Assembly (NCBI GenBank): GCA_043802295.1
Contig: JAZDLF010000002.1
Span: forward strand, 1 to 35,133
Length of the DNA stretch: 35,133 nucleotides
Source of the DNA: Candidatus Woesearchaeota archaeon
GTDB lineage: Archaea > Nanobdellota > Nanobdellia > SCGC-AAA011-G17 > JAPLZO01
Reading direction: 5' to 3'
Part shown: one piece after another, positions 4,052-34,716 of the stretch
How the letters are laid out: each line of letters opens with the position of its first letter
Position numbering within the stretch: position 1 is the stretch's first letter
The notes under the pieces: generated by a model
What the model was told of the DNA's origin: nothing
Databases searched by the model: none
What the model saw: the letters and a program-made list of their open reading frames with translations, nothing else
Position numbers and translations under genes: made by a program

Positions 4052-5628
4052 TGTATAATACCAAATCTTTTTAAGACAGTATGAGGCATTTTATAATATT
4101 CATTTATTATATCGTGAACTTCTTTATAACCAAATATACCTCTTCTGTACATTCTCATTAAAAGTTCAGATCTAATTTTAAATTCTCTATACAAATCTTG
4201 TTTCATTATACCATGTTGCAACACAATTTTATCAAAAACTCTAGAATCTGGTTTAAAGAAAAATTTGTCTTTTTTAGGATCCCATATAAATGGCTTGTTC
4301 TCAATTGCTTCACCAATATTTTCTTCCACTTTTAAAATTTCAACAATTTCTTTAACTCTTCTAACCATCTTATCTCCTAATTTTGCTGTAATCATAACAC
4401 AAACAACATCTAATGAATCAACTAAAGCTGGTGACAAGTTTATTGGTGGTGTTTCCAATCTCCTAACCATTGTTGGTACATCTTCTGCATGCATAGTCCC
4501 TAAACTAGGATGACCAGAAGCCATTCCTTGAAATAAAACAAATGCTTCTACACCTCTAACTTCTCCAACAATTACATAGTCTGGTCTTTGTCTAAAACTT
4601 TCTTTTAATAATGTAAATAAATCAATCTCTCCTCTTTTACCTTCTGCACCCATTCCAATGCCACTTCTAGTAACAGATGGCAACCAATTTTCATGTAATA
4701 TATTAAGTTCTCTAGTATCTTCTATACTAACCACTCTTGATGAAGGTGGTATAAAAAATGCAAACGTATTAAGCAAAGTTGTCTTTCCACTGCCAGTCCC
4801 ACCAATAACCATTATATTACATTCATGTTCTATTAACAACCATATATAAGCCAACAATTCAGGACTCACTGTTCTAAATTCCATTAACTTAATAGGACTC
4901 CAAGGTTCTTTAGTGAATTTTCTGATTGTAAAAGTTGGTCCTCTTGAACTTATGTCTTGAGTATAAGTTGCATTTACTCTGCTTCCATCAGGCAAAGCAG
5001 CATCTAACAAAGGATTAGCATATGATATATATTGACCTGATTTTTGAGCCAATTTTTCTACAAAGTTTGTTAGTTCTTTAATATCATTATAGATTATATT
5101 TGTTCTCAGATTTTTATATCTTCTATGTACAATATAAATTGGAGTATTAGCACCATTACATTCTATATCTTCTATAAAATAATCTCTTAATAAAGGTTCA
5201 ATTTCATTTAATCCAACAAAATCTCTATAAATATAATACATTATTTTTATTAAAGTATCGTCACTTATTTTAATTTGTAGTTCATTTAATAAAACTCTAA
5301 TATTTTTTTCTAAATATTCAATTATAATATTAGGATCTTTAACACTAATAAAACTTATATTAATAAGTTCTCTAATACCATCTTCTAAAACACTCAATAG
5401 TTTTTTTTCTTTCTCATCTAAAACAGGCTCTTCTATATTGTATACTAATTCATTATTTGTGCTATCCCAAAAAACATGAGCGTAAACATAAGGACTTATT
5501 AATGGATATTTAACATCCAATTTTGTTTTATCAATTATATCTGGTATGTTTGGTATAATTGGTTGTTCAAATTTAAAAATTGACTTTTTTTCTTGAGAAA
5601 TTTCTAATTTTTTGCTAAATAAACCCAT
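4048..5628 (-). CDS. FlaI/PilB/VirB11-family type IV filament assembly ATPase
   Basis: Walker A (VIGGTGSGKTTLLN), Walker B (PDYVIVGEVRG) and His-box region (GHPSLGTMHA). Its 526-aa length and N-terminal domain are typical of archaeal FlaI/PilB-like secretion ATPases. Confidence 0.9.
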   Translation of the reverse strand: MGLFSKKLEISQEKKSIFKFEQPIIPNIPDIIDKTKLDVKYPLISPYVYAHVFWDSTNNELVYNIEEPVLDEKEKKLLSVLEDGIRELINISFISVKDPNIIIEYLEKNIRVLLNELQIKISDDTLIKIMYYIYRDFVGLNEIEPLLRDYFIEDIECNGANTPIYIVHRRYKNLRTNIIYNDIKELTNFVEKLAQKSGQYISYANPLLDAALPDGSRVNATYTQDISSRGPTFTIRKFTKEPWSPIKLMEFRTVSPELLAYIWLLIEHECNIMVIGGTGSGKTTLLNTFAFFIPPSSRVVSIEDTRELNILHENWLPSVTRSGIGMGAEGKRGEIDLFTLLKESFRQRPDYVIVGEVRGVEAFVLFQGMASGHPSLGTMHAEDVPTMVRRLETPPINLSPALVDSLDVVCVMITAKLGDKMVRRVKEIVEILKVEENIGEAIENKPFIWDPKKDKFFFKPDSRVFDKIVLQHGIMKQDLYREFKIRSELLMRMYRRGIFGYKEVHDIINEYYKMPHTVLKRFGIIQ

Positions 5629-5648
5629 AATACAACCTCTTTTTCAAA

Positions 5649-5666
5649 AAGTGTAACTAAACACTT
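5649..5666 (-). terminator. Hairpin plus U-tract between the pilin genes and the ATPase (possible attenuating terminator)
   Basis: On the minus strand the sequence reads AAGTGT-TTAGTT-ACACTT (6-bp stem) followed by TTTTTG. It sits 26 nt downstream of the stop of the pilin-like gene at 5692. An internal TATA-like ATTATATAAG and an AAGAGG Shine-Dalgarno (SD) ribosome-binding motif lie on either side of it, the TATA-like box just upstream and the SD further downstream, just before the ATPase ATG. Confidence 0.35.
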
Positions 5667-5691
5667 ATATAATTTTTGTATTACTTTTTAG

Positions 5692-6210
5692 TTACATTAG
5701 ACTTAATACAACAATAGGATTATTATCATCATATCTTCCACTATGTGTTATAGTTAAAGTATATTTTCCAGAAAAAGGGCCAACACTATTAGACTGTAGC
5801 TCTAATTTAGTTATATCATTGTAATTTAAATTTAAATTTATTATATATTTATCAACCTGTTTAGTTGGTTTTAAAATCATTTTTAAAATACCTTCAGTTA
5901 TTACTATATTAGGTTCCATCATTTTATCACTTGTTTCCATTTCCCAGCTTACATCAGTTTCATTAATATATAAGCTACCTTCATCTATTGTAAATGGACT
6001 TAAAACTCTTCTTGAGTTAGGGCCCTCATTAATAACTGTTCTTATATTTTTATCAAGAATAAACATAATATCTTTAGTTTGAGAAACAATATTCCTTTGA
6101 GTCATTTTTTTAATTAAAGGGACGCCAGCATTTAGAATTATAATTAAAACAATTACTCCTAAAGCTAAATACAATACAGCAGATATCCAAATATCACCTT
6201 TCTTTTTCAT
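5692..6210 (-). CDS. Pilin-like protein with a class III signal peptide
   Basis: N-terminus is MKKKGDIWISAVLYLALGVIVLIIILNAG (KKG followed by a hydrophobic helix). It lies in the pilin gene row upstream of the ATPase. Confidence 0.6.
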   Translation of the reverse strand: MKKKGDIWISAVLYLALGVIVLIIILNAGVPLIKKMTQRNIVSQTKDIMFILDKNIRTVINEGPNSRRVLSPFTIDEGSLYINETDVSWEMETSDKMMEPNIVITEGILKMILKPTKQVDKYIINLNLNYNDITKLELQSNSVGPFSGKYTLTITHSGRYDDNNPIVVLSLM

Positions 6211-6229
6211 TTTAAAAAAATAAAAAAAA

Positions 6230-6673
6230 TTAACAAGGGGTTGTTTCTTCTGCTACATAAGCACTACATGGAATACTTTCATTACTACCACCAGCTACAC
6301 TAGCTATTGCTTCAACTTTCTGTGATCCTGCTGGTATTGTGAATACATAATTTTTAACCATTTGGATTGGTAAATAATAATTTGTACTAGGTACTGGTGT
6401 TGTTACACTTCCAGAACTATCATATACTCTAAACACAAATGATTTTATATCAACACTACCTTTATTTTCTATAGTTAATCCAGTACAACCTGCTTTTGTT
6501 ATTTTAAAGTCTAATTGTGTACATTTTAATGCAGATTGTGTATTTTGTTCTGTAGATGTTGTCATATCTCTAACAAATCCACCGCCCCATGTCATTATAA
6601 CAGCAGCTAAAGCAACAGTAAATCCTATTAGCAATACAGTTGCTATTAATGGTGAAATTCCTTTTTTATTCAT
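6230..6673 (-). CDS. Archaeal type IV pilin (Pilin_N / DUF1628-type N-terminus)
   Basis: N-terminus is MNKKGISPLIATVLLIGFTVALAAVIMTW, the canonical archaeal class III signal (KG|ISPLIATVLLI). A strong SD motif (AAAGGAGGT) lies 8 nt upstream. Confidence 0.85.
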   Translation of the reverse strand: MNKKGISPLIATVLLIGFTVALAAVIMTWGGGFVRDMTTSTEQNTQSALKCTQLDFKITKAGCTGLTIENKGSVDIKSFVFRVYDSSGSVTTPVPSTNYYLPIQMVKNYVFTIPAGSQKVEAIASVAGGSNESIPCSAYVAEETTPC

Positions 6674-6688
6674 TTTAATTAACCTCCT

Positions 6689-7141
6689 TTATATTATACT
6701 TAGATCATAAATAACATGTTGAGCTGAACAAGGCTCATAAATATTTTTTCCAATTTTTAATTTTGGTATAACATCAACCTGTTTAGTTGTACTCAAGCAT
6801 GCAATTAAAAATTTATTATTTGAATAGGCATCTAAACTACTATCTAAATTTACAATTTTTATGTTTCCACTTTCTTCAGTGCATCTAAATGTAAAAGCAT
6901 CAATTTTTTCTCTTTGATTTTCTATAGAAATGTCTAAATTATTACCAATCACATTTATACCAGTAATATCTATTGCTATATCTGTTGCGCAGCTTAATTT
7001 TTGTTCAGCAACAGTACCCTCTTTTTGTTTAATCTCTTCTATATAACCTCTACCCCATAACATAACAATAACTAATAAAGCAACAACAAAACCAACTAAT
7101 AGAACAGTAGCAATTAATGGACTTACCCCTCTTTTTTTCAT
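6689..7141 (-). CDS. Archaeal type IV pilin (Pilin_N / DUF1628-type N-terminus)
   Basis: N-terminus is MKKRGVSPLIATVLLVGFVVALLVIVMLW. ATGA overlap with the upstream pilin gene. Confidence 0.85.
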   Translation of the reverse strand: MKKRGVSPLIATVLLVGFVVALLVIVMLWGRGYIEEIKQKEGTVAEQKLSCATDIAIDITGINVIGNNLDISIENQREKIDAFTFRCTEESGNIKIVNLDSSLDAYSNNKFLIACLSTTKQVDVIPKLKIGKNIYEPCSAQHVIYDLSII

Positions 7142-7557
7142 GGTTTACATATACCTCTTCTTGTTTTATCTGAACAACCAACTTTTTTGTTATTAACTTC
7201 TATAAATGGAATCATATCAAAACCAGTGTCATAATAACTTGGTGGTATTCCTAAGTTCACAGTACTAGTCGGAATAACCGCTGTATCTAATGTACTAGAG
7301 CTTATATTAGTTCTAATTATAAATTTTACTATTGTAAAAGAACCTCTATTATTAACTGATGTTGTTTTAGTAGTACAATTAGCATTTACAGTATAAATCA
7401 CATCTCTGCAGTTTATATCATTCTCCACCATTTCTGTTAATTCATCAGTATATTTTTCAGTTTGTTGTTTACTCCACATTATAACAGTAGTTCCTAATAG
7501 CACAGAAAATCCTAATAATAAAACCCAAGAAATAACTTCACTTACACCTCTTTTCAT
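7138..7557 (-). CDS. Archaeal type IV pilin-like protein, first gene of the operon
   Basis: N-terminus is MKRGVSEVISWVLLLGFSVLLGTTVIMW, a class III signal-like sequence. Confidence 0.75.
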   Translation of the reverse strand: MKRGVSEVISWVLLLGFSVLLGTTVIMWSKQQTEKYTDELTEMVENDINCRDVIYTVNANCTTKTTSVNNRGSFTIVKFIIRTNISSSTLDTAVIPTSTVNLGIPPSYYDTGFDMIPFIEVNNKKVGCSDKTRRGICKP

Positions 7558-7641
7558 TATAAATATTAATGTTAATTGATTTAAAAAGTTTTTGATGTTT
7601 GAGAGAAACCTTTATATATTTTCTTAGAACTAATATCATTT
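7558..7641. promoter_or_regulatory. Divergent promoter region (pilus operon to the left, aspS operon to the right)
   Basis: GAAACCTTTATATATT at 7605-7620 places a TATA box about 24 nt upstream of the aspS ATG, which suggests a leaderless mRNA. On the other strand, CTTTTTAAAT (7580-7589) lies about 23 nt upstream of the pilin ATG at 7557. Confidence 0.5.
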
Positions 7642-9012
7642 ATGAAAAGAACTCATACATGTGGGGAGTTAAGTAAAAAAGATATAGGAAAAAAAGTAAT
7701 ATTATGCGGTTGGGCATCTTCTATAAGATCCCATGGAAAAATTACTTTTATAGATCTTAGAGATAGGTATGGTATTACTCAAATAGTTTTAAAAGAAAAC
7801 ATCGAAATAAAACCAGAATATGTTTTAAAAATACAAGGTACAGTTAAAAATAGACCATCACAAACAATAAATGAAAAAATTTCAACAGGTGAAATTGAAG
7901 TAGAATCTAATTCTATAGAAATAATAAATCCTTCTAAAACTTTACCTATAGAAATAGATGATAAAAAATCATTTTCTGATGAAATAAGATTAAAATATAG
8001 ATATTTAGATTTAAGAAGAAATAATATGCAACATAATATTATAACAAGACATAAAGTAACTCAAGCAACTAGAGAATACTTAAACAATCAAAACTTCTTA
8101 GAAATAGAAACACCATTATTAATGAAATCAACACCAGAAGGAGCTCGTGATTACCTTGTTCCATCTCGTGTTAATCCAGGTAAATTTTACTCATTACCTC
8201 AATCACCACAATTATACAAACAAATTTTAATGATTTCAGGTTTTGATAGATATTATCAAATTGCTCGTTGTCTAAGAGATGAAGACTTAAGACAAGATCG
8301 TCAACCAGAATTTACTCAAATTGATATAGAAATGGCTTTTATAGATGAAGATGATATTCATAATTTAATAGAAGGTATGTTAAAACATATTTTTAAAAAA
8401 GTTTTAAATATTGACATTAAAACACCATTTCCAAAAATAAAATATGAAGAAGCTATGAAAAAATATAATTCAGATAAACCTGATTTAAGAAAAGACAAAA
8501 ATAATCCAAAAGAATTTGCATTTTGCTGGGTTATAGATTTTCCATTATTTGAATATAGTAAGGAAGAAAAAAGACTTGTTGCAATGCATCATCCATTTAC
8601 TTCTCCAAAAGAAGAAGATTTAAAATTACTTGATAAAAATCCAGAAAAAGTTCGTGCAAAGGCCTATGATATTGTTTTAAATGGTATAGAACTTGGCGGG
8701 GGTTCTATAAGAATTCATAAAGAAGAAATTCAAAAGAAAATTTTTGATAATTTAAGCATTGATAAAAAAACAGCAGAAAAAAGATTTGGTTTTTTATTAG
8801 AAGCTTTATCTTATGGTGGTCCTATTCACGGCGGTATTGCTCTTGGTTTAGATAGATTAGTTGCTTTAATAACTGGAACAAATGATATTAGAGAAGTAAT
8901 AGCCTTCCCAAAAAATAAAGCAGCTCAATGTCCAATGGATGGTTGCCCTTCTGAAATTTCTGAAAAACAATTAAAAGAACTTAATATTAAATTAGATCTA
9001 AAGAAAAAATGA
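7642..9012 (+). CDS. aspS: Aspartyl-tRNA synthetase with a bacterial-type catalytic core but no GAD insertion domain
   Basis: N-terminal OB region (THTCGELSKKDIGKKVILCGWASSIRSHGKITFIDLRDRYG), motif 2 region (FYSLPQSPQLYKQILMISGFDRYYQIARCLRDEDLRQDRQPEFTQIDIEMAF), HHPFTSP and GGGSIRIH. Only about 12 aa separate SDKPDLR from WVIDFPLFE. Confidence 0.9.
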   Translation: MKRTHTCGELSKKDIGKKVILCGWASSIRSHGKITFIDLRDRYGITQIVLKENIEIKPEYVLKIQGTVKNRPSQTINEKISTGEIEVESNSIEIINPSKTLPIEIDDKKSFSDEIRLKYRYLDLRRNNMQHNIITRHKVTQATREYLNNQNFLEIETPLLMKSTPEGARDYLVPSRVNPGKFYSLPQSPQLYKQILMISGFDRYYQIARCLRDEDLRQDRQPEFTQIDIEMAFIDEDDIHNLIEGMLKHIFKKVLNIDIKTPFPKIKYEEAMKKYNSDKPDLRKDKNNPKEFAFCWVIDFPLFEYSKEEKRLVAMHHPFTSPKEEDLKLLDKNPEKVRAKAYDIVLNGIELGGGSIRIHKEEIQKKIFDNLSIDKKTAEKRFGFLLEALSYGGPIHGGIALGLDRLVALITGTNDIREVIAFPKNKAAQCPMDGCPSEISEKQLKELNIKLDLKKK

Positions 9013-9548
9013 AAATTACTATTCTTGGTGCAGGAGATATTTCTAAAATTCATAGACATTCTAAATTATCTGAATTAGAAGTTAAAACTTTAATTGAAGA
9101 TTTAGGTAAATTTCTTGCTGAAAAAAAAGTAGATTTAGTTATAGTACCTGCTCGTGGTATTCCCTATGAAGTAGCCAAAATTTATAAAGCAAATAGTGGT
9201 CCAAAAGTTATTGGTGTTATTCCTAAAGAAGATAAAGAATTTGGTATAATGCATATTCAAGAGTATATGCACATAAGTGATGAAGAAATAAATATTGGTG
9301 ATTGGTATGATTTAAATGGAAGAATTGCTTCTTTAAGTGATTATGCAATTTGTATTGGAATGTCTGGTGGCGCTATTTGTGATGTAGCAATGTTAAAATA
9401 TCATTACAAATATAAAGGTTCTAAAACCAAACTAATAATATTTAAAAACACAATTTCAAAAAAACTTCCTAAAGAAATAGAAGAGGATTTAGGAAATAAC
9501 TTAAAATATATAAATAAAGTATCACAACTAAAAAGGATATTAAAATGA
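9009..9548 (+). CDS. Rossmann-fold protein, LOG/TIGR00725 (DprA/Smf-related)-like
   Basis: The residue pattern is ITILGAGD ... LVIVPARGIPYEVAK ... VIGVIPKED ... LNGRIASLSDYAICIGMSGGAICDVAM. This is a weak family-level resemblance only. ATGA overlaps with aspS upstream and gatC downstream. Confidence 0.4.
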   Translation: MKITILGAGDISKIHRHSKLSELEVKTLIEDLGKFLAEKKVDLVIVPARGIPYEVAKIYKANSGPKVIGVIPKEDKEFGIMHIQEYMHISDEEINIGDWYDLNGRIASLSDYAICIGMSGGAICDVAMLKYHYKYKGSKTKLIIFKNTISKKLPKEIEEDLGNNLKYINKVSQLKRILK

Positions 9549-9829
9549 ACATTGATAAAGATCTAATTAAAAAAGTTGCTAAAAATGCACGTTTAAATTT
9601 AACAGAATCTGAAATAAAAGAATTTTTACCACAGTTAAAAGAAATTCTAAATAGTTTTTCTGTAATAAATGATGTTAATACAGATAATATTAAACCATCA
9701 TTTCAACCAATAGAAATAAAAAATGTTTATCGTGAGGATAAAGTTGAGAAATCATTAACTCAACGAGAAGCTTTAGCTAATACTAAACATAAAAAAGATG
9801 GTTTCTTTAAAGGACCAAAAGCAATATGA
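9545..9829 (+). CDS. gatC: Asp/Glu-tRNA amidotransferase subunit C
   Basis: 94 aa, directly upstream of gatA with an ATGA overlap. Its size and the sequence LTESEIKEFLPQLKEILNSFSVINDVNT...REDK are typical of GatC. Confidence 0.8.
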   Translation: MNIDKDLIKKVAKNARLNLTESEIKEFLPQLKEILNSFSVINDVNTDNIKPSFQPIEIKNVYREDKVEKSLTQREALANTKHKKDGFFKGPKAI

Positions 9830-11178
9830 AAGCTAATGAATTTGTACAAAAAGTAAAAAATCAAGAAATTAATATAATTGAACACACAAATAAAGTTCTA
9901 GATGAAGCTAAAAAAATAAATAAAAAATATAATTATTTTAATATTGTTTCAGAAGATTTAGCAATACAACAAGCAAAAAATATATCTAAAAATCCAAAAG
10001 GTAAATTAGCAGGATTACCAATTTCAATTAAAGATTGTATTTGTGTTAAAGATGTTGAATCAACAGCTGGTTCTAAAATTTTAAAGGATTATAAACCAGT
10101 TTTTAATGCAACAATAGTTCAAAATTTAATCAATGAAGGTGCTATAATAATTGGTAAAACTTCTCAAGATGAATTTGGTTTTGGTTCATTTTCAGTTAAT
10201 GTTGGTTTAGACAAAAAAATTCCAAAAAATCCTTATGATATTAATCGTGTTACTGGTGGTTCTTCAGGAGGAAGTGCTGGTTACACAGCAATAACAAAAT
10301 ATCCACATATTTCAATAGCAGAATCAACAGGAGGTTCTATTGTAAACCCAGCATCTTTTTGTGGTGTTGTTGGTTTATGTCCAACTTATGGTTTAGTTTC
10401 AAGATATGGACTTATTGATTATTCAAACTCTTTAGATAAAATAGGTCCAATGTCAAAATATGTTCATGATATAGATTTAGTATTACCCATAATAGCTCAA
10501 CATGATTTAAAAGATTCAACATCATTAAAAGAAAAAATAAATTCAGATTCTAAAATAAAAAAAATAGCAGTTATAAAAGAAACTTTAAACGTAGATGAAA
10601 AAATAAAAGATCTTATTTTAGACAAATTAGATAATTATGATACAATTTCTTTACCTTTAGTAGAAAAATATTCTTTAGCATGTTATTATATTATAGCAAT
10701 GTCAGAATCGTCAACAAATTTAGCAAAATATTGTGGTATTAGATATGGTTTATATCAAGAATTAAAAGGATCATTTGATGAATATTTTACTTCAGTAAGA
10801 TCTAAAGGATTTTCAAAAGAAGCAAAAAGAAGAATTATTTTAGGAACATTCGCAAGAATGGCTGGTTTTAGAGATGCTTATTATCTAAAAGCCATGAAAT
10901 TAAGAACTTTAATAATAAATGAATATAAAAAAGCATTTAAAAAATATGATTTGCTAGTTTCACCAACAATGCCAATCATAGCTCCAAAATTTACAGAGAT
11001 TAAAAAATTAACACCATTACAAAATTACATGATGGATGTTTTAACAGTTGGTCCTAATCTAGCTGGTTTGCCTCACATAACAAATAATGTGGGTTTAGTT
11101 AATAAAATGCCTGCTGGTATTATGTATATTGCAGATCATTTAAATGAAAATAAATTAATAGAAATAAATAAAAAATAA
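9826..11178 (+). CDS. gatA: Asp/Glu-tRNA amidotransferase subunit A (amidase signature family)
   Basis: Amidase signature sequence GGSSGGSAG, plus ISIKD and GKTSQDEFGFG. Confidence 0.9.
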   Translation: MKANEFVQKVKNQEINIIEHTNKVLDEAKKINKKYNYFNIVSEDLAIQQAKNISKNPKGKLAGLPISIKDCICVKDVESTAGSKILKDYKPVFNATIVQNLINEGAIIIGKTSQDEFGFGSFSVNVGLDKKIPKNPYDINRVTGGSSGGSAGYTAITKYPHISIAESTGGSIVNPASFCGVVGLCPTYGLVSRYGLIDYSNSLDKIGPMSKYVHDIDLVLPIIAQHDLKDSTSLKEKINSDSKIKKIAVIKETLNVDEKIKDLILDKLDNYDTISLPLVEKYSLACYYIIAMSESSTNLAKYCGIRYGLYQELKGSFDEYFTSVRSKGFSKEAKRRIILGTFARMAGFRDAYYLKAMKLRTLIINEYKKAFKKYDLLVSPTMPIIAPKFTEIKKLTPLQNYMMDVLTVGPNLAGLPHITNNVGLVNKMPAGIMYIADHLNENKLIEINKK

Positions 11179-19199: not shown

Positions 19200-19288
19200 G
19201 GGCCTGTAGCATAACCCGGACAGTGCGGTCGGCTTCAAAGAAATTAGCTAAGGACCGATTGATTCAGGTTCAAATCCTGGCAGGCCCA
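19200..19288 (+). tRNA. tRNA-Arg(UCG) with a 15-nt intron (19237-19251); CCA not encoded
   Basis: Hand-folded cloverleaf. Acceptor stem GGGCCTG/CAGGCCC with discriminator A73. D stem GCAT/GTGC with A14, G18, G19 and A20. Anticodon stem GTCGG/CCGAT. 4-nt variable loop. T arm TCAGG-TTCAAAT-CCTGG. A strict bulge-helix-bulge (BHB) motif sets the splice sites and gives the loop CUUCGGA. C35, A20 and G37 all fit Arg. Confidence 0.85.
19237..19251 (+). other. tRNA intron (AAAGAAATTAGCTAA) at the non-canonical position 35/36
   Basis: BHB components: outer helix 19226-19230/19253-19257 (5 bp); 3' bulge AAG (19250-19252); central helix GGCT/AGCT (19231-19234/19246-19249, 4 bp including one G-T); 5' bulge TCA (19235-19237); inner AA/TT stem closed by a GAAA tetraloop (19238-19245). 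Cleavage after the second nucleotide of each bulge. Confidence 0.7.
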
Positions 19289-27335: not shown

Positions 27336-28139
27336 TTATGGTGCAACTTCTAAATCAACCATAATATCTTTTCCTGAATACAATCCAGCACCATGATAAC
27401 CAATTGCATCATTAAAAGCATGTAATCCACCATTAACATCTAGTATATAATATCCTTTTCCTGTTGGAGTAACTTCTATATGTTTAGCAATACTTTTTTC
27501 GCTTAATAAGCTTCCATAATCAATAGTATCTCCAAATGAATAAACACGACCATCTTTATCTAATATATAATATCCTTTTCCAACCATTGTAACAGCCATA
27601 CTAACAGCTTTTTTATTAATATCTAAACTTCCATAATCTTTTGCATCACCATACGCATAAACTTCTCCATTTTCATCCAAAATATAATAACCTTTTTCAG
27701 TTCTTGTTAATTCTAAATCAACAAATTTTTTATTAATATCTAAACTTCCATAATCTTTTGCATCACCAAATGTATATACATTACCTTGTTCTGTTAATAA
27801 GTAATAACCTTTATTACTTAACTCCATATCAATAAATTTTTCACCATTTTTAATATTACCATAATCTAATGCATCTCCAAATCCACTAATCTCACCATTA
27901 TTTCTTAAGATGTAATAACCTTCTTCAACTAATTCTAAGTCAACAGCATCGCCTTCTTGTAAACTTAAATTCCCATAATTAACAGTGCTACCAACATTAT
28001 AGACATTACCATATTTATCTAATGCATATAATCCACTATAACTTTTAGCTAAATTACCACTAATATCATTATTTTTTACAACAAAAAATAATGTTAACAA
28101 AAAAATCAAGAAAATAATTATATAACTCTCTTTATCCAT
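27336..28139 (-). CDS. Secreted six-repeat beta-propeller-like protein
   Basis: N-terminal TM/signal segment (IIIFLIFLLTLFFVV) followed by six units of about 38 aa, each of the form GYYILDxxGxVYxFGDAxDYGSL. The DNA of adjacent units is partly identical (for example CCATAATCTTTTGCATCACC occurs at about 27631 and about 27748). Confidence 0.65.
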   Translation of the reverse strand: MDKESYIIIFLIFLLTLFFVVKNNDISGNLAKSYSGLYALDKYGNVYNVGSTVNYGNLSLQEGDAVDLELVEEGYYILRNNGEISGFGDALDYGNIKNGEKFIDMELSNKGYYLLTEQGNVYTFGDAKDYGSLDINKKFVDLELTRTEKGYYILDENGEVYAYGDAKDYGSLDINKKAVSMAVTMVGKGYYILDKDGRVYSFGDTIDYGSLLSEKSIAKHIEVTPTGKGYYILDVNGGLHAFNDAIGYHGAGLYSGKDIMVDLEVAP

Positions 28140-28849: not shown

Positions 28850-28857
28850 CTAAAACG
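28850..28857. repeat. Left copy of the 8-bp target-site duplication CTAAAACG
   Basis: Identical to 33503-33510 and directly abuts the left terminal inverted repeat. Confidence 0.8.
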
Positions 28858-28885
28858 GGCTCTGTCACAAACTCGTTTGATAATT
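28858..28885 (+). repeat. Left terminal inverted repeat (IRL)
   Basis: GGCTCTGTCACAAACTCGTTTGATAATT. This resembles published IS6-family ends as I recall them (IS26 GGCACTGTTGCAAA; IS257-type GGTTCTGTTGCAAAGTT). A related subterminal copy, GTGTCAAATTCGGTTGATAG, lies at 28889-28908. Confidence 0.75.
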
Positions 28886-29008
28886 TAGGTGTCAAATTCG
28901 GTTGATAGTTTTAATAGAATTTTACTATAAATAAGTTTAAAAATACTTAAGATATAATCATTTTAGACGAGATATAAAAGAGGCATTATAATTAAGTGGG
29001 GGATATCT

Positions 29009-29191
29009 ATGGGTGAACGTTACTATAATAAAGTAATTTGTGATGTATGTGGTAGAAATGTTAATGTAGCAGATATTTTAGGAAAATGTGTAACTTGTGG
29101 AAAGACTGTTTGTAAATCTTTTTTGCGTGGATGTGGAAAGAAAAGACTTTTTGGTAGTGTTTATTGTAAAGAATGTTTTTATAAAAAATAA
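29009..29191 (+). CDS. Cys-rich zinc-binding mini-protein (60 aa), cargo gene 1
   Basis: The 10 cysteines include three CxxC pairs (CDVC, CVTC, CKEC). A GTGGGGGA ribosome-binding-like sequence lies upstream. TATA-like GATATAAAAG is at 28971-28980. Confidence 0.6.
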   Translation: MGERYYNKVICDVCGRNVNVADILGKCVTCGKTVCKSFLRGCGKKRLFGSVYCKECFYKK

Positions 29192-29241
29192 AAGGTAACA
29201 TTTAAATTCTTAAATTTCTTGTTTCTTATAGAGGATGTGTT

Positions 29242-29481
29242 ATGGGAGATTTAGGAGAAGATTTATTTAAAATGGGTGTAGCCTATAAAATGGCTAAAAG
29301 ATTAACATCTAATTCTTTAACTTGTGATAATTGTGGTAGAACTTATCCTAAAAATAAAGGTGGTGTTTGTAGAAAAGGTGGTTGGGGATGTGGTAGAGAA
29401 TTATGCCAAAAATGTGCTAAAATATGTAAAAGATGCAAAAAAGTTTTTTGCCCAAAACATATAGATAGTCATGGATGTTAG
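29242..29481 (+). CDS. Cys-rich zinc-binding mini-protein (79 aa), cargo gene 2, paralogous to cargo gene 1
   Basis: The sequence has 12 Cys and 2 His. It shares the CDxCGR...GxC...CG(K/R)x(V/L)C pattern with the 60-aa protein. A GAGGA motif lies upstream. Confidence 0.6.
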   Translation: MGDLGEDLFKMGVAYKMAKRLTSNSLTCDNCGRTYPKNKGGVCRKGGWGCGRELCQKCAKICKRCKKVFCPKHIDSHGC

Positions 29482-29918
29482 AGGTAAAAATGGGATATTA
29501 TGAAGAAAAAGAACAGTATGAATCACAAAAAGAATTAGCTGAAGGTTCTAGAGTATTTCATTTTAATAAAGTATTAGATATTCATCCAAAAAGAATAGAA
29601 GAAGTTTTCGATTTCTTTGTTAAAGATAATAAAGATTTAGAACATAAATATGAAATTGAAAAAGTTTTAGAATACAAAAGACCTAATTATTATGAATCAA
29701 TATGGAAAGAAAAACGTTTGTTCGGAATAAAATCAAAATTTACTTTTGAACTACAAGGGTGGAGAACTAAAATAAGATTAATCATAACAATTAGTGTAGA
29801 ATCTTGGAACAAAAATAAGATATGGACAAAAAATACTCTTAAACTATGGAAAGAAGAATGGGAAACTCGTATCCAGCAATTATATGATAATTTTGGTATT
29901 ATAGAAACAAAAAAATAA
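29475..29918 (+). CDS. Hypothetical protein, cargo gene 3
   Basis: ORF track entry; no motif recognised. An alternative start at ATG 29490 (MGYYEEK...) has a GAGGT motif 4 nt upstream and may be the real start. Confidence 0.5.
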   Translation: MLEVKMGYYEEKEQYESQKELAEGSRVFHFNKVLDIHPKRIEEVFDFFVKDNKDLEHKYEIEKVLEYKRPNYYESIWKEKRLFGIKSKFTFELQGWRTKIRLIITISVESWNKNKIWTKNTLKLWKEEWETRIQQLYDNFGIIETKK

Positions 29919-30020
29919 ATCTTGTTCCGTTTGATGGAATAATAACACCACTTTCAAAGAAACCAAAATGTTTAAATATAATAGAAATTTCAAAAATTAT
30001 AAGTTTATAAATAATGTATT

Positions 30021-30183
30021 GAGAGTGGTGACCTCAGTACAATAAGAAAGAGTGGGAGGGCTTATTCTTGAAAACCGATTGAATAAACCCCTCCTTACAC
30101 CAATTTATAATTTCTAGTATGGTAAAATTTATATAGTAGAATAATTATTATGTATATATTCAATCGGGTTTAGTAATTTTTTG
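30021..30183 (+). ncRNA. Candidate structured non-coding RNA or regulatory leader inside the element
   Basis: A local GC-rich island within AT-rich spacer. An imperfect hairpin spans 30052-30100 (GTGGGAGGGCTTATTC ... GAATAAACCCCTCCTTACAC). A competing inverted repeat pairs AAACCGATTGAATA (30072-30085) with TATTCAATCGGGTTT (30157-30171), followed by a T6 run (30177-30182). TATA-like TTTATAAAT is at 30007-30015. The boundaries are guesses. Confidence 0.25.
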
Positions 30184-30298
30184 TTACAATCAAAAGAGTA
30201 GATAATAAAGGGGATGATAATATTAAACTCATTCTTATAAGTTATATACTTTTATAAAATCCAGTCGTACGGACTTAAAGCGTAAGGAAAAAATAAAA

Positions 30299-31297
30299 AT
30301 GGCAGGCAATAAACCAAACATAAATAAGATAAATTTGTCTATAACTAAGACAATAAAGAAATATAAAAATACATTAGGCATTGATAAAAATAAAGGATTT
30401 AAAAGTTCTACATATGAGATAATTAAACTAATAAATTTTGATGCTCTTGAAGACCAAGAGTATTTTGAACAATTAAGGGAAGACATAGCTTCAGAATACA
30501 ACGATAATTTGGGGCATGATGAATATTTTTTTTATGGTGTAATATCTAAAGAAACAAATCTCAATAAAATACAAGTTAAAAGATTGTTTGAACTACAACA
30601 AAAAGTTGGGTTGCCTAGATGTCATATATTTTTAACTAATGGAATTAGAAATAATGAAATTTTACCATTATTACAAGAATGCCTTAATTTAAAAAATGAA
30701 AATCAAAAGATAACATTAACTTCAGATATGAACCTAAATAAAGATTTATTTGAATTTATTGAAGTAGAATTTAAGGATTATGGGCATACATATATTTATA
30801 GGGAAAGAACTAACAAAAATAAAGAAAATTATGATTATATAAATAGTTTAAAGAATGATAAAAAGATTAGGCACATAACAAATATTACTTGGATGTTTTA
30901 TTCTGATAGTTTACCAGTAGTTTTTGAATTATCCTTTAATGGATTTAATTCACAAACTTTAATTAAACATGGTGGTGGAAGTAGTAACAAAAAGAAAAAT
31001 AAACATCCATATAAGATATCTAATGTGGATACAGCTCTTATGTTTGAACAAGAATTAGCTTTAATTAAACCATTGGGATTACATGAAAATAAATCATGTG
31101 ATTGTATACTGCATAATGATGGACTTATTCTAAATCCAGATATTATTAAATTTTTAGAAAAATCTGAATATGGAAAGATGTGGTTAGAAATGCATAATTT
31201 ACAAAAAATCTTGGATTTATTGAATGAACCTGAAAGTGAACTACTTGAAATAACCTCGATTAGTCAAAGGGTTAAAGAATTGGGGATAATCTCTTAA
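30299..31297 (+). CDS. Hypothetical 332-aa protein, cargo gene 4; its N-terminus and translation-initiation region resemble those of the transposase
   Basis: ORF track entry. It begins MAGNKPNINKIN, against MAGNHINPKNNKIN in the transposase. The DNA shares AGGAAAAA..ATGGCAGG and AATAAGATAAAT. No catalytic motif recognised. Confidence 0.6.
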   Translation: MAGNKPNINKINLSITKTIKKYKNTLGIDKNKGFKSSTYEIIKLINFDALEDQEYFEQLREDIASEYNDNLGHDEYFFYGVISKETNLNKIQVKRLFELQQKVGLPRCHIFLTNGIRNNEILPLLQECLNLKNENQKITLTSDMNLNKDLFEFIEVEFKDYGHTYIYRERTNKNKENYDYINSLKNDKKIRHITNITWMFYSDSLPVVFELSFNGFNSQTLIKHGGGSSNKKKNKHPYKISNVDTALMFEQELALIKPLGLHENKSCDCILHNDGLILNPDIIKFLEKSEYGKMWLEMHNLQKILDLLNEPESELLEITSISQRVKELGIIS

Positions 31298-31543
31298 TAT
31301 CTCCATTTTTTTTATTATTCTATTTAAATCCTTTATACTCTTTTCTTTTTTAGCAAATTTTTTACTAGCTTCTTTTGAAGAATGTTCACAAATTAAATAG
31401 TTATATTGATTAATATTATCTAAATTTGAACAACACTCACATTTATTATTCTTATTCCACTCTATAAAAAAATCTTTTTTTAATTTATATAATTCTTCAT
31501 ATTTAAATTTTAATAAAGCTTGAAGACAAAATAAAGAGGTCAT
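31241..31543 (-). CDS. Hypothetical 100-aa protein, cargo gene 5
   Basis: ORF track entry, coupled by an ATGA overlap to the untracked 57-aa ORF upstream. It contains CECC...CEH. The 3' end overlaps the convergent gene at 30299-31297 by 57 nt. Confidence 0.45.
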   Translation of the reverse strand: MTSLFCLQALLKFKYEELYKLKKDFFIEWNKNNKCECCSNLDNINQYNYLICEHSSKEASKKFAKKEKSIKDLNRIIKKMEILRDYPQFFNPLTNRGYFK

Positions 31544-31713
31544 TTTTTCTTTACCTCTTTTAGAACAAAGACTATAACTTCTCTATCTATAAACTCCTTT
31601 TCACAATTTATTTTTCCAGAATTACCACCATTAGATTTTACAACTTCAGAATATACTTTATCATAACTCAATTTAATAATCAATTTCTTTGCTGTCGTTG
31701 AATTGATATCCAT
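31540..31713 (-). CDS. Hypothetical 57-aa protein, untracked ORF, cargo gene 6
   Basis: Hand translation gives MDINSTTAKKLIIKLSYDKVYSEVVKSNGGNSGKINCEKEFIDREVIVFVLKEVKKK. Its ATG is the innermost of three ATGs within the palindromic repeat. The stop overlaps the next start as ATGA. Confidence 0.45.
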   Translation of the reverse strand: MDINSTTAKKLIIKLSYDKVYSEVVKSNGGNSGKINCEKEFIDREVIVFVLKEVKKK

Positions 31714-31730
31714 GGATATCCATGGATATC
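31705..31730. promoter_or_regulatory. 26-bp perfect palindrome built from 10-bp tandem units (candidate operator)
   Basis: GATATCCATGGATATCCATGGATATC equals its own reverse complement. It sits between the divergent 57-aa ORF and the ribbon-helix-helix ORF. Confidence 0.6.
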
Positions 31731-31777
31731 CATTATTTAAATAGATTATTGTAATAAAAGATATATTTTATTTAATA

Positions 31778-31793
31778 GAAACCTTTATATATT
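31778..31793 (+). promoter_or_regulatory. BRE/TATA promoter of the ribbon-helix-helix gene
   Basis: GAAACCTTTATATATT is identical to the 16-mer upstream of aspS (7605-7620). It lies 22 nt upstream of ATG 31815, which suggests a leaderless mRNA. Confidence 0.5.
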
Positions 31794-31814
31794 AGTATGT
31801 ATTATACATATTAT

Positions 31815-31931
31815 ATGGAATACATAAAAAAGACTATAACAATAACAAAAGAACAAGAAAAATGGATTGATGATAATAGCATTAATTTAAGTCGTTTTGT
31901 TCAAAAGGCATTAGATAAAATAAGAAAATAA
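31815..31931 (+). CDS. Ribbon-helix-helix (CopG/Arc-like) DNA-binding protein, 38 aa, untracked ORF
   Basis: Hand translation gives MEYIKKTITITKEQEKWIDDNSINLSRFVQKALDKIRK. It shows a beta-strand (TITIT) followed by two short helices, the classic ribbon-helix-helix layout. Confidence 0.6.
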   Translation: MEYIKKTITITKEQEKWIDDNSINLSRFVQKALDKIRK

Positions 31932-31972
31932 AACCTATCTCAAAGCCGTGAGGCTTTGGACAGGAGGAAAAA

Positions 31973-33193
31973 ATGGCAGGAAACCATATTAACCCAAAAA
32001 ATAATAAGATAAATAAGTATAAAAAGTTTACTGAACTAAAATTCAATTTTGAAAAGCAACAACAAGATAGGAGTATCAGAGCCTATTCTCTTTTAGCTAA
32101 AGGAGATATACCACTAATTTTGAATAAAAATGAGTATTATGTTCCTTCTCAATCTGATATAAATAAAAAATACAAAGTAATTCATACAGATAAGTGGGAA
32201 TGTGAATGTTTAGATTTTAAGCATAAATGTGAAGATAATGGTTTGGTATGTAAACACATACAAGCAATCCAATTCTATCTAAAATTAAAAAATAAAGTAG
32301 AAATAGATGATTTAAACTTAAAAGATGAAACTAATAAAAAATTATGTCCTTATTGTAATTCTGAAAATGTAGTTAAGTTTGGTATAAGAAAGAATAAATT
32401 TGGAAATAAACAAAAATATTCTTGTAAAGAATGTAATAAAAAATTTGTTTTAGAACCAATTAAATATATTAAAGGTAATGCCAAATTAATAACTTTAACT
32501 ATGGACTTATATTATAAAGGATTATCATTAAGAGATATTAAAGATACATTCAAGCAATTCTATAATTTTGATGTAACCCATGAGACTATTAGAAGATGGA
32601 TAAGAAAATTTACTAAATTAATGAATGAATATACAGAAAAATTCAAACCACAATTAAGTGAAAAATGGCATATAGATGAACAAAATATTAAAGTAGGAAG
32701 AGAATGGTTATGGTCTTGGAATGTTTTGGATGAAGATACAAGATTTTTGGTAGCAAATAATGTAACTAAATCAAGATATATAAATGATGTAAAAGTTTTA
32801 TTAGATAAAACTAAAGATTTAAGCAAACCAAAACAAATAGTGACAGACGGCTTACAAGGTTATAAGAAAACAATTAAAAAATATTATGGATATAATCAAA
32901 AATTATGTAAACATAATGTAGAGCATATAAGAATAAATACAATAAAAGATAATATACATAATAATCTAATTGAAAGATATAATAATGAATTTAGGGAGTT
33001 CGATAAAGTAAGGCGTGGATTTGGTAATAAAGAAACAGCACAAGAATGGACTGAAGGTTTTGCTTTATTTCATAATTTTATCAAAAAAGGTATTGATGGT
33101 TTAACACCTTCAGAAAGAGCTAAAATACCAATAATATTAAATAATAATAGATGGTTAGATTTATTGAAGATAAGTCTAGAAGATGTCAAATGA
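31973..33193 (+). CDS. IS6/IS240-type DDE transposase with N-terminal SWIM zinc finger and zinc ribbon
   Basis: SWIM CxCx14CxH (CECLDFKHKCEDNGLVCKH). Zn ribbon (CPYCNSEN...CKECNKKF). DDE region WHIDEQNIKV ... IVTDGLQGYKK ... HNNLIERYNNEFREFDKVRRGF aligns with the IS26 WHVDETYVKV ... TDKAPAY ... NNVIECDHGKLKR. An AGGAGG motif lies 5 nt upstream. Confidence 0.85.
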   Translation: MAGNHINPKNNKINKYKKFTELKFNFEKQQQDRSIRAYSLLAKGDIPLILNKNEYYVPSQSDINKKYKVIHTDKWECECLDFKHKCEDNGLVCKHIQAIQFYLKLKNKVEIDDLNLKDETNKKLCPYCNSENVVKFGIRKNKFGNKQKYSCKECNKKFVLEPIKYIKGNAKLITLTMDLYYKGLSLRDIKDTFKQFYNFDVTHETIRRWIRKFTKLMNEYTEKFKPQLSEKWHIDEQNIKVGREWLWSWNVLDEDTRFLVANNVTKSRYINDVKVLLDKTKDLSKPKQIVTDGLQGYKKTIKKYYGYNQKLCKHNVEHIRINTIKDNIHNNLIERYNNEFREFDKVRRGFGNKETAQEWTEGFALFHNFIKKGIDGLTPSERAKIPIILNNNRWLDLLKISLEDVK

Positions 33194-33464
33194 TGATATA
33201 TTAGATAAAATATTTTTTATATTTATAGCTATAACAATTATTATCATTCTTATTTATCTAACGATTGATTTAATTTATAAACCAATTACAGAAGTAGATA
33301 TGACATTTTTTGGTTCAAGTTTACACATAAAAACAAGTAATCCTGATATAATTTATTTTACTATAACAATTTTTTGTCTTGCTATCGTTTTCATATTTTG
33401 GATAATTTATCATTATAGACTAGAATTAAAGAAACTTAAGCATCAATCGAATGTGACAAAATAG
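33183..33464 (+). CDS. Small 2-TM membrane protein at the right end of the element
   Basis: ORF track entry. It overlaps the transposase 3' end by 11 nt, and its 3' end covers the right subterminal repeat. Confidence 0.4.
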   Translation: MSNDDILDKIFFIFIAITIIIILIYLTIDLIYKPITEVDMTFFGSSLHIKTSNPDIIYFTITIFCLAIVFIFWIIYHYRLELKKLKHQSNVTK

Positions 33465-33474
33465 GGATTATATC

Positions 33475-33502
33475 AAATTTCAACCTAATTTAAGACAGAG
33501 CC
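33475..33502 (-). repeat. Right terminal inverted repeat (IRR)
   Basis: The reverse complement reads GGCTCTGTCTTAAATTAGGTTGAAATTT. A subterminal related copy (reverse complement TTGTCACATTCGATTGATG) lies at 33441-33459. Confidence 0.75.
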
Positions 33503-33510
33503 CTAAAACG
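33503..33510. repeat. Right copy of the 8-bp target-site duplication CTAAAACG
   Basis: Identical to 28850-28857. It contains the stop codon (CTA on the plus strand, TAG on the minus strand) of the MFS gene. Confidence 0.8.
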
Positions 33511-34633
33511 TCAAATGCAATAAAGTGCCTATAGCACTAAACACAAATCCAGAAGATAAATCATCAAAGATTAATACCAAACTTAATAATAATATCCTAC
33601 CACAACTCAAACATATTTCTCTAAAAACTAAATATTCAATAGCGCTTTTATTTTTATTAGCTTTATCATATGTTAAAGCACTAAATGGAACATCTATCAT
33701 TGTATAACTAATTCCAGCTAATGTTGCTATAATAAATAATTGCCATAAATTCTTAGCAAATAACAATATTATCCAAGACAATGCTGCTAAGAAACTGCCT
33801 AATCTTATTAATTTTCTTTTGTCTTGTATATCAGAAGTTCTACCTATAACAAACGCAAATAGAGCTGTAAAAAAGCCAACACCACTACTAATAAAACCCA
33901 ATTGAAGATATTTCTTTAAAAGAAAAAACGCAAATAAAGGTAATAAAACAGTTTGAGAATCACCTCTAGCACCATATCCAATAAAACCAGGAACATCTGC
34001 TAAATTATTTTTTTTAAAAATATTTTTAATATGATATTCTTGTTTTTCATGTTTAACTTTAATCATAAAAATAGGTATCACAGATAATATTAATGTTATT
34101 GTAACTAAGATAAATAAAATTCTATAATCTAAAAAGGTTAATATTATTCCACCTATTAAAGGCCCTAATAAACCTATAAAAATTGCTATAGAATACCATA
34201 TCCCGATTTGCTCTCCAATATGATCATGATCACTATATTTAGCAAATGTACTATGAAAAGAAATCCAGTAAAAAGAATTTGCTAATCCTCCTATTATAGC
34301 TATATAATATAAATTTATATTAATTTGAGTTAAATAATACAATAAAATATAAAATAATAAATATATTGGGGCACTAATTAAAATACAATATTTAAAACCA
34401 ATTTTATTGAAAATCTTAGCTGAAAATGGTGTTAATATTCCGAATGTAACCGAAAAAATAATATAAAACCATAAAACATTTTGTAAACTGTAATTAACTT
34501 CTCTTATCAAATATATTGGTATAAATATACCAATCATACTAATTGCTAGTGCTCTAATAAAAATAGAAATATAAATTTCTTTTAATCTTATATCTGGTTT
34601 AAAATGTAATAAATGCAAACTATGAATATGCAT
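33503..34633 (-). CDS. MFS-type transporter (about 12 TM)
   Basis: Polytopic membrane protein. The track start at 34648 is a TTG. The first ATG is at 34633 (MHIHSLHLLHF...). Confidence 0.65.
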   Translation of the reverse strand: MHIHSLHLLHFKPDIRLKEIYISIFIRALAISMIGIFIPIYLIREVNYSLQNVLWFYIIFSVTFGILTPFSAKIFNKIGFKYCILISAPIYLLFYILLYYLTQININLYYIAIIGGLANSFYWISFHSTFAKYSDHDHIGEQIGIWYSIAIFIGLLGPLIGGIILTFLDYRILFILVTITLILSVIPIFMIKVKHEKQEYHIKNIFKKNNLADVPGFIGYGARGDSQTVLLPLFAFFLLKKYLQLGFISSGVGFFTALFAFVIGRTSDIQDKRKLIRLGSFLAALSWIILLFAKNLWQLFIIATLAGISYTMIDVPFSALTYDKANKNKSAIEYLVFREICLSCGRILLLSLVLIFDDLSSGFVFSAIGTLLHLTF

Positions 34634-34716
34634 AATATTAATATCCAATAATTAGTATATAAAATATTCTTTTTAGGCTAATAATCTATTTATATTAACA
34701 ATAACATGATATTTAT

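Follow-up and report, generated by a model that had tools for sequence, protein, structure and literature searches.

The question raised by positions 28858 to 33502 of a 35,133-nucleotide stretch of contig JAZDLF010000002.1 from a Candidatus Woesearchaeota archaeon, hereafter referred to as the window, is whether a single pair of IS6-type ends has enclosed and moved a whole group of genes. Textbooks treat the IS6/IS26 elements as minimal insertion sequences (ISs), which mobilize other genes only when 2 copies bracket them. The segment in the window is 4,645 bp long and contains one transposase gene along with 8 other plausible open reading frames (ORFs), 9 in total, between its inverted repeats (IRs). 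We consider it very probable that the segment is one cargo-carrying transposon that belongs to the IS6 family in the broad sense. The conclusion that it was inserted whole follows from the IS6-type tips, the perfect 8-bp target site duplication (TSD), the single intact transposase gene, and the absence of an internal IR copy. The initial annotation had proposed one 4,645-bp unit with at least 8 additional ORFs and had interpreted it as a cargo-carrying, or transporter, IS; both proposals are supported by these features, with the non-transposase ORFs being located within a single IR pair.

The 2 copies of the duplication, CTAAAACG, are located at positions 28850 to 28857 and 33503 to 33510, where they directly abut the tips of the left IR (IRL, 28858 to 28885, plus strand) and the right IR (IRR, 33475 to 33502, minus strand), respectively. 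The octamer occurs twice in the whole window, compared with 0.30 expected occurrences. The 9-nucleotide tip GGCTCTGTC of the IRL at 28858 to 28866 is repeated on the minus strand of the IRR, where its exact reverse complement GACAGAGCC is located at 33494 to 33502. Our reading of the sequence bore out the positions reported previously for both the direct repeat and the tips, whereas the reported arm identity of 20 of 28 positions was off by one, our recount giving 21 of 28. A repeat search paired the arms at 22 of 29 positions if the extra G:C pair formed by positions 28857 and 33503 was counted. The tips start with GG, have a G at position 7, and contain a CTGTC motif, which are the features of IS6-type ends, and the IRR also contains the motif GGTTGAAA at 33478 to 33485. 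The right end of the element was also identified in 2 other loci, L001 and L002. The CTAAAACG/GGCTCTGTC feature is hereby confirmed as real.

Loci with archaeal homologs of the transposase were scanned for IR and TSD pairs (n = 161; 79 genome and 80 metagenome loci with homologs of 33% to 57% identity were fetched). The scan called for an exact 6-nucleotide tip, at least 12 of 16 IR matches, an 8/8 TSD and an enclosed transposase gene, and it recovered the pair in the window. The control consisted of the same scan on block-shuffled loci, in 5 replicates of 161 loci (805 trials). The real loci yielded 53 pairs with a perfect 8-bp TSD, of which 45 were GG-tipped, compared with 1.6 and 0 per replicate in the shuffled loci. 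Since only 8 matches were obtained in the 805 shuffled trials, none of which was GG-tipped, the IR and TSD pair in the window is far beyond chance.

These results bear on the alternative that the window contains an ordinary IS of about 1.5 to 1.8 kb, consisting of a ribbon-helix-helix (RHH) gene, the transposase gene, and the IRR, which is located beside unrelated host DNA, the IRL and the 8-bp repeat being coincidental. The IR arms are indeed perfect over 9 bp only, short repeats are common in an AT-rich genome (680 inverted pairs were listed), and the sequence GGCTTTG of an internal hairpin (position 31952) resembles the IR tip at 6 of 9 positions. However, with up to 1 mismatch allowed, GGCTCTGTC matched the window at the 2 element tips only, and the best internal tip-like sites reached no more than 6 of 9 positions, leaving no second internal IR that could define a 1.5-kb IS. 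Furthermore, the shuffled controls yielded essentially no IR and TSD pairs, and no element of about 1.5 kb was identified in any of the 161 homologous loci, either with the strict scan or with a relaxed version of it. The hairpin also proved to be conserved as a structure, with unrelated stems in L001 and in the Woesearchaeota element L018. We give this short IS next to host DNA almost no weight.

The hairpin, CAAAGCC-GTGA-GGCTTTG (31941 to 31958, plus strand), is located between the stop codon of the RHH gene and the GGAGG/ATG of the transposase gene. Hairpins were identified at the same spot in L001 (171 to 185; AGAGCC/GGCTCT) and L018 (9932 to 9948; GCGGGG/CCCCGC), and the order of RHH gene, hairpin, AGGAG, and ATG of the transposase gene was common to the 3 elements. 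Since the hairpin has been kept in L001 and L018 with differing self-complementary stems, this comparison of sequences indicates that it is a structural or regulatory element and not a copy of the IR. It may serve as an attenuator or a processing signal that controls the expression of the transposase. That the hairpin represents abutted IRs or an IR-like site was considered and ruled out by the unrelated stem in L018.

The transposase gene (31973 to 33193, plus strand) encodes a protein of 406 amino acids with SWIM, IS1-type zinc ribbon, HTH, and IS6/IS240 DDE domains. The protein matched the Pfam model PF13610 (DDE_Tnp_IS240) with an E-value of 1.7e-16 and 61 bits, compared with a cut-off of 27 bits, and no other transposase is encoded between the IRs, in agreement with the description of a sole internal transposase with an IS6/IS240 DDE signature in the initial annotation. 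The top NCBIfam model was "IS6 family transposase" (NF033587; 122.1 bits, with an equivalog cut-off of 125), whereas the match to the IS1 model was weaker (67 bits). The IS6 models thus gave the best scores, which do not place the protein outside the IS6 family. The N-terminal zinc-binding domain of IS1/IS1595 scored above its own cut-off, and the relatives of the protein are labeled "IS1/IS6 family transposase" by NCBI.

More than 300 homologs of the transposase were identified. The nearest were 70% identical and present in 2 short Logan contigs only (L001 and L003), while the best identity values elsewhere were 53% to 57%. In an alignment of the window protein with 19 homologs of 46% to 70% identity, the SWIM-type CxCx13CxH motif (C77, C79, C93, and H95), the four-Cys ribbon (C125, C128, C151, and C154), and the catalytic residues D235, D292, and E334 were invariant across all 20 sequences. 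The catalytic residues are intact, and the gene looks functional, as judged from its sequence. The comparisons demonstrate an archaeal clade with a transposase of about 400 amino acids, in which the HTH-DDE core of IS6/IS240 is combined with a SWIM zinc finger and with an IS1-type zinc ribbon. It was also noted that an ORF in L003 (1416 to 1874) that resembles DNA methyltransferases, with a DPPF motif recognized by eye, overlaps the end of the transposase gene. The closest relatives thereby seem to carry modification-type cargo as well.

After de-duplication, the pairs identified in the 161 loci corresponded to 46 distinct elements that ranged from 2,659 to 10,430 bp (median, about 4.5 kb). 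The relaxed scan added 1 element of 2,569 bp, resulting in a total of 47 distinct elements of 2.57 to 10.4 kb. The claim that the window element is several times larger than typical IS6 elements is therefore correct with respect to the curated ISfinder set, in which IS6 elements measure 0.7 to 0.9 kb and up to about 1.7 kb, but not with respect to its own clade, where 4.6 kb is the median. The elements were found in Woesearchaeota, Aenigmarchaeota, Micrarchaeota, Iainarchaeota, Bathyarchaeia, Thermoplasmatota, Methanomicrobia, Archaeoglobaceae, and Nitrosopumilales. The IRs in the family were of the GG(T/C)TCTGT type, with tips such as GGTTCTGT, GGCTCTGT, and GGTATTGT, as well as CTCTCTGTCG in one Woesearchaeota group. 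As in the window, the transposase gene was located at the right end and read outward in 4 relatives from Woesearchaeota (L009, L012, L013, and L023).

The recurrent cargo of the sister elements included restriction-modification enzymes of the Eco57I/MmeI type, N6_N4 methylases, ResIII helicases, PIN toxins, a GmrSD-HNH enzyme, a ParB-DUF488 protein, and proteasome-like proteins, with genes of the restriction-modification, PIN, GmrSD, and ParB-like types making up most of it. Identical IRs were found to enclose greatly differing lengths: elements with the IR CTCTCTGTCGCAATAA were 6.5, 7.7, and 9.7 kb long, with a near-identical tip in an element of 3.5 kb, and elements with the IR GGTTCTGTTAACTCTT were 3.6, 3.8, 5.4, and 6.6 kb long. 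These differences indicate that the cargo is exchanged between elements. A small AbrB-like, RHH, or zinc-ribbon gene was almost always located just upstream of the transposase gene, usually in divergent orientation.

We refer to these elements as archaeal SWIM/zinc-ribbon IS6-like cargo transposons, a grouping that was defined in this analysis and is not curated. Its members encode a transposase of about 370 to 450 amino acids with CxCxnCxH, CxxC..CxxC, and the IS240 DDE, and they have GG-tipped IRs and an 8-bp TSD. They measure 2.5 kb or more, and the transposase gene is preceded by a small gene of the AbrB, RHH, or zinc-ribbon type. All of these features are present in the window element. 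The lineage of archaeal IS6-like unit transposons with obligatory cargo appears to be undescribed. A broader proposal, which we find plausible although somewhat short of probable, is that the elements constitute a large undescribed class with a SWIM/zinc-ribbon transposase, a constant regulator module, and exchangeable, mostly defense-related cargo, distributed over the DPANN archaea, Bathyarchaeia, Thermoplasmatota, and methanogens.

The elements share the DDE type, the GG tips, the G at position 7, the CTGT, and the 8-bp TSD with the IS6/IS26 family, including IS26, IS257, IS240, and the archaeal ISH14, ISC774, and ISPfu1. The IR motif (GG, G at position 7, and cTGTt) and the 8-bp TSD are among the described features of that family (PMC7986276, PMC6807381). 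The window element differs from IS6/IS26 by containing 9 ORFs rather than 1 and by encoding a transposase of about 400 amino acids with SWIM and IS1-type zinc ribbon domains. A review of the family lists IRs of 15 to 20 bp and archaeal members that are short (PMC7986276), whereas the ends in the clade of the window element extend beyond this length and carry subterminal repeats. In the same review, a passenger gene is attributed to ISDsp3 alone among the IS6 members (PMC7986276). As in transporter ISs (tISs) such as ISDsp3, a single transposase gene and internal passenger genes are enclosed by one IR pair, and there is no resolvase. However, ISDsp3 contains one hypothetical gene and is a lone bacterial case, whereas multi-gene and often defense-type cargo is the rule in the clade studied here.

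The long clostridial IS6 elements (clades h and i of Varani et al.; VII and VIII of Harmer & Hall), which were compared by their description only, also encode a zinc-finger N-terminal extension on an IS6 DDE core and have a transposase longer than that of IS26. They are, however, single-gene elements of 1.2 to 1.8 kb for which neither SWIM domains nor cargo have been reported (PMC7986276, PMC6807381). Unit transposons of the Tn3 family have in common with the window element the cargo within one IR pair, the replicative (cointegrate) logic, a possible toxin-antitoxin-like pair, and small regulators beside the transposase gene. In contrast to these, the window element lacks a Tn3 transposase of about 1,000 amino acids, a resolvase or res site, 38-bp IRs, and a 5-bp TSD, and its transposase belongs to an unrelated family. 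No Tn3-type transposase or resolvase domains were detected in any ORF of the element.

A survey of the archaeal mobilome by Krupovic et al. (2019) listed passenger-carrying transposons among the classes that were not detected in archaea (PMC6563490). In the passages retrieved from a 2026 survey of archaeal ISs by a term search (PMC13343696), the word "passenger" was absent, "cargo" occurred only in the title of a cited bacterial reference, and no discussion of cargo-bearing IS6 elements was found. Furthermore, no description of cargo transposons with SWIM-IS6 transposases was found in the searchable literature, with ISfinder and subscription journals being outside the scope of the search. One pair of IRs routinely encloses 1 to 9 kb of cargo in the archaeal IS6-like lineage represented by the window element and 46 sister elements, and the apparently undescribed lineage is a more interesting result than the window element, which is an ordinary member of it. 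If confirmed, these would represent the first case recognized in Archaea of widespread DNA transposons with passenger genes, and they would provide a vehicle for the horizontal movement of defense genes in DPANN and other uncultured archaea, in genomes without conjugative elements. They would also broaden the range of architectures known for IS6 elements, and the natural sets of ends plus transposase could be tested as cargo-delivery tools for archaea.

We propose that the N-terminal zinc and HTH domains of the transposase mediate its binding to the GGCTCTGTC tips and probably also to subterminal repeats of the GGTTGA type. Two GKTTGAWA motifs are located near the left end (28875 to 28882 and 28900 to 28907, plus strand), and 3 of the 7 matches to this motif in the window are located at most 50 nucleotides from the element tips, all 3 facing inward. 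By analogy, the subterminal motifs are proposed to serve as additional transposase-binding sites; paired subterminal repeats were present at many ends of the sister elements. Transposition would then proceed by replicative fusion of the donor and target replicons, as in characterized IS6 members (PMC7986276, PMC6807381), after which homologous recombination by the host between the 2 copies would yield a simple insertion with a TSD. Such an insertion is compatible with the formation and subsequent resolution of a cointegrate (PMC6807381). Everything between the tips would move along with the transposase gene, and small DNA-binding proteins encoded by the element, AbrB57 and RHH44, would regulate its expression. 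AbrB57 may also stabilize the element together with the product of the neighboring ORF100.

Several observations weigh against the interpretation of the segment as a mobile IS6-like unit with these properties. The IR arms are imperfect past the first 9 bp (21 of 28), the NF033587 score is 3 bits below the curated cut-off, and Harmer & Hall have questioned the placement of the archaeal "IS6" elements in this family (PMC6807381). The cointegrate mechanism has been carried over from work on bacterial IS26/IS6 elements (PMC7986276), and the toxin-antitoxin and regulator roles draw on gene order and one sub-threshold match to DUF2080. Neither a second copy of the exact 4.6-kb unit nor an empty site was identified in the genome, metagenome, and viral collections, the junction sequence expected for the uninserted site being TTTAAATATTTCTAAAACGTCAAATGCAAT, and exact-protein look-ups with the transposase, L15e, and MFS proteins of the window had no other copy or empty site on record. 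Nor was any whole unit observed at 2 different sites among the sampled loci, where pairs of identical elements represented one locus present in 2 data sets; the movement as a unit is therefore deduced from the IRs and the TSD and not from an observed re-insertion. On the other side, no related genome was found in which this locus has the cargo but no IRs, an arrangement that would have refuted the single unit.

The right 3.2 kb of the window element, which contains ORF332 (plus strand), ORF100 and the AbrB57 gene (both on the minus strand), the RHH44 gene (plus strand), the hairpin, and the transposase gene, is syntenic with L018. The latter is a chromosomal element of 6,874 bp, and its transposase is about 50% identical to that in the window. 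The left cargo differs, consisting of a 923-amino acid type IIG restriction-modification enzyme in L018 versus 2 zinc-finger proteins and ORF147 in the window. The trio of ORF332, ORF100, and AbrB was also identified in L169, beside a different and shorter IS6-type transposase gene. From these comparisons, we infer that the right 3.2 kb probably represents a conserved core, while the left 1.4 kb represents variable cargo. The variable part encodes a Cys-rich, zinc-ribbon-like protein of 60 amino acids (29009 to 29191, plus strand), for which sub-threshold zinc-finger matches and a weak tblastn match in L015 were obtained, a Cys-rich, zinc-binding-like protein of 79 amino acids (29242 to 29481, plus strand), also with sub-threshold matches, and ORF147, a protein of 147 amino acids with no detectable family (29475 to 29918, plus strand). 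ORF147 is followed by a non-coding gap of 380 nucleotides (29919 to 30298) with a GC-rich hairpin, GGGAGGG..CCCCTCC, at about 30053 to 30092, which is unusual at a GC content of 25%. A non-coding RNA was considered for this gap and rejected, the fold z-score being weak (-2.2) and there being no match in Rfam.

None of the cargo proteins in the window was assigned to a Pfam, NCBIfam, PHROG, or PADLOC family, with the exception of a near-threshold match of AbrB57 to DUF2080. Such a set of ORFans could conceivably include a novel Rep or capsid protein, and archaeal plasmids and viruses commonly encode small proteins of the zinc-finger, RHH, and AbrB types. The segment might accordingly be a small plasmid or virus-like replicon, now integrated, that acquired IS6 ends or a transposase, with the ORFans being its replication or structural genes. 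This alternative, which the initial annotation had raised in the form of a module with captured IS6 ends, was not supported by the data. No Rep, integrase, capsid, or packaging signature was detected in the element, the transposase gave the only match in PHROG, PADLOC gave none, and IMG/VR contained no relatives of ORF332 and only 4 distant relatives of the transposase. Moreover, the GC content is 25% throughout the window, the element having the same value as the host, and the block from ORF332 to the transposase gene is shared with the chromosomal L018, of which the other cargo is a restriction-modification enzyme. Finally, the 47 elements carry defense-type cargo and not replicon cores. We consider an integrated replicon unlikely, and favor a transposon with a variable cargo segment.

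ORF332 (30299 to 31297, plus strand) forms a tiny family with the proteins P0122 to P0124, which were the only 3 relatives identified with a profile search; no homologs were obtained when sets of 5.8 and 1.8 billion proteins were searched with the single sequence. The motifs CxCxxH, NxENY, and LxFxGF were invariant in this family. A profile search of PDB gave nothing meaningful, and the AlphaFold models were poor (pLDDT 45 to 46). The CxCxxH had given the impression of a zinc motif like that of TGT, which was not supported by any tool and was rejected. Relatives of ORF332 adjoin IS6-type transposase genes in L018 and L169.

It was also noted that ORF332 and the transposase both begin with MAGN..N..NKIN, and that the 5' ends of their genes are about 77% alike over about 50 nucleotides (30299 to 30345 versus 31973 to 32025; repeat D6). 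The N-terminus of P0122 to P0124 is longer and unlike that of ORF332 in the window. Given the similar 5' ends and the differing N-terminus of the relatives, ORF332 in the window may have gained a copy of the 5' end of the transposase gene by recombination. The similarity between the start of ORF332, MAGNKPNINKIN, and the start of the transposase gene, MAGNHINPKNNKIN, could also be taken as a hint of past recombination with the 5' end of a second transposase gene, as expected if the segment were what remains of a cointegrate or pseudo-compound transposon of the IS26 style, in which 2 IS copies in direct repeat flanked the cargo and the left one later lost its transposase gene. This would correspond to the classic mode of mobilization by IS6-family elements (PMC7986276). 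However, it predicts direct outer ends and no TSD across the whole unit, whereas the window contains one transposase gene and only 2 IR tips, which are inverted and flanked by a perfect TSD, and the single-transposase architecture recurs in 47 independent elements. A pseudo-compound origin is therefore very unlikely.

ORF100 (31241 to 31543, minus strand; MTS..FK..WN.N..CxCC..CxH) is 35% identical to an ORF of 86 amino acids in L018, and could be placed in a three-way alignment with L018 and L169. Its gene overlaps by 4 bp with the gene for AbrB57 (31540 to 31713, minus strand), an AbrB/SpoVT-like protein of 57 amino acids that resembles DUF2080 and is encoded divergently from the transposase. 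AbrB57 matched PF09853 with an E-value of 2.6e-4 and 21.1 bits, just under the cut-off of 21.5, and its gene has positional equivalents in L018, L169, L004, and other elements. The overlap and the gene order correspond to the usual arrangement of antitoxin followed by toxin, and the antitoxin role of DUF2080 proteins has been validated (PMC10440598). By analogy, AbrB57 and ORF100 may constitute a toxin-antitoxin pair, with ORF100 as the candidate toxin or partner and AbrB57 as the candidate antitoxin or regulator. As a part of the broader proposal of an undescribed class, and just as tentatively, the trio of ORF332, ORF100, and AbrB is possibly a new mobile three-gene system for defense or addiction.

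Three 10-bp tandem units, each with the palindrome GGATATCC, are located at 31704 to 31733, over the start codon of the AbrB57 gene, and represent a candidate operator. They are followed by GAAACCTTTATATAT (31778 to 31792, plus strand), which resembles the BRE/TATA of an archaeal promoter and is predicted to serve the unit of the RHH and transposase genes. L018 contains its own 10-bp repeats, CTGATTTAAT (9684 to 9708), and an identical 15-mer GAAACCTTTATATAT (9733 to 9747) in the same place, and taken together the repeats and the box look like an operator and a divergent archaeal promoter. The gene for RHH44, an RHH-like protein of 44 amino acids (31797 to 31931, plus strand), is located directly upstream of the transposase gene, and RHH-like ORFs hold the equivalent position in L001 and L018.

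Between the stop codon of the transposase gene and the IRR, an ORF of 93 amino acids was identified (33183 to 33464, plus strand), in which 2 transmembrane-like hydrophobic stretches were recognized by eye. L001, with its 70%-identical transposase, is devoid of this ORF, and the transposase ORF there extends to the IRR. It was noted that the C-terminus of the transposase in L001 (..QPNMTK) matches the end of the 93-amino acid ORF (..QSNVTK), which suggests that about 270 bp were inserted near the end of the transposase gene, in its 3' part.

The element is flanked on the left by the gene for ribosomal protein L15e, an archaeal and eukaryotic protein (PF00827, E-value of 3.6e-66), and on the right by a gene for an MFS transporter (33503 to 34648, minus strand). 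Since the TAG with which the MFS gene ends falls inside the right TSD copy, and the left TSD copy is upstream of the L15e gene, at 78 bp from its start codon, the insertion is intergenic, in the gap between the MFS stop codon and the promoter side of the L15e gene, and both flanking genes are intact. The L15e protein shows 59% identity to its counterpart in a Woesearchaeota metagenome-assembled genome (MAG), the nearest named homologs of the transposase are from Woesearchaeota and other DPANN archaea, and the host is an AT-rich DPANN or Woesearchaeota-like archaeon with a small genome. In other respects, the window element is an ordinary and neutral insertion, apparently a recent one.

The nearest locus orthologous to this site, L011 from a Woesearchaeota MAG, was considered as a candidate for the empty site and rejected: homologs of L15e and the MFS transporter are present, with a different element of the IS6 clade and extra genes between them. 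This element (5134 to 11171) is located about 38 bp upstream of the L15e ortholog, is oriented like the window element, has the TSD CCATTTTC and an IRR that starts with CTCTCTGTCG, and encodes a helicase-nuclease of 1,505 amino acids as cargo; its left end is without the first approximately 30 nucleotides of the expected IRL. The 2 insertions near L15e could reflect coincidence or a preferred target region. A common duplication, TGATAAAG/CTTTATCA, with similar flanks was also observed in L058, L071, and L074 from different Bathyarchaeia genomes, which could represent either an old insertion at an orthologous position or a hotspot for site-specific insertion. L071 contained 2 nested candidate IRLs, each preceded by the same 8-mer.

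Elsewhere in the window, a tRNA was identified at 19200 to 19288 by Rfam (51.7 bits), which was not reported in a scan of the window with ARAGORN. Beside the L15e gene (27336 to 28139), we noted a protein of 267 amino acids that is built from repeats resembling those of RCC1 (GYYIL..G.VY.FGDA..YG). Judging by eye from the translation, its N-terminus contains a hydrophobic stretch that resembles a membrane anchor.

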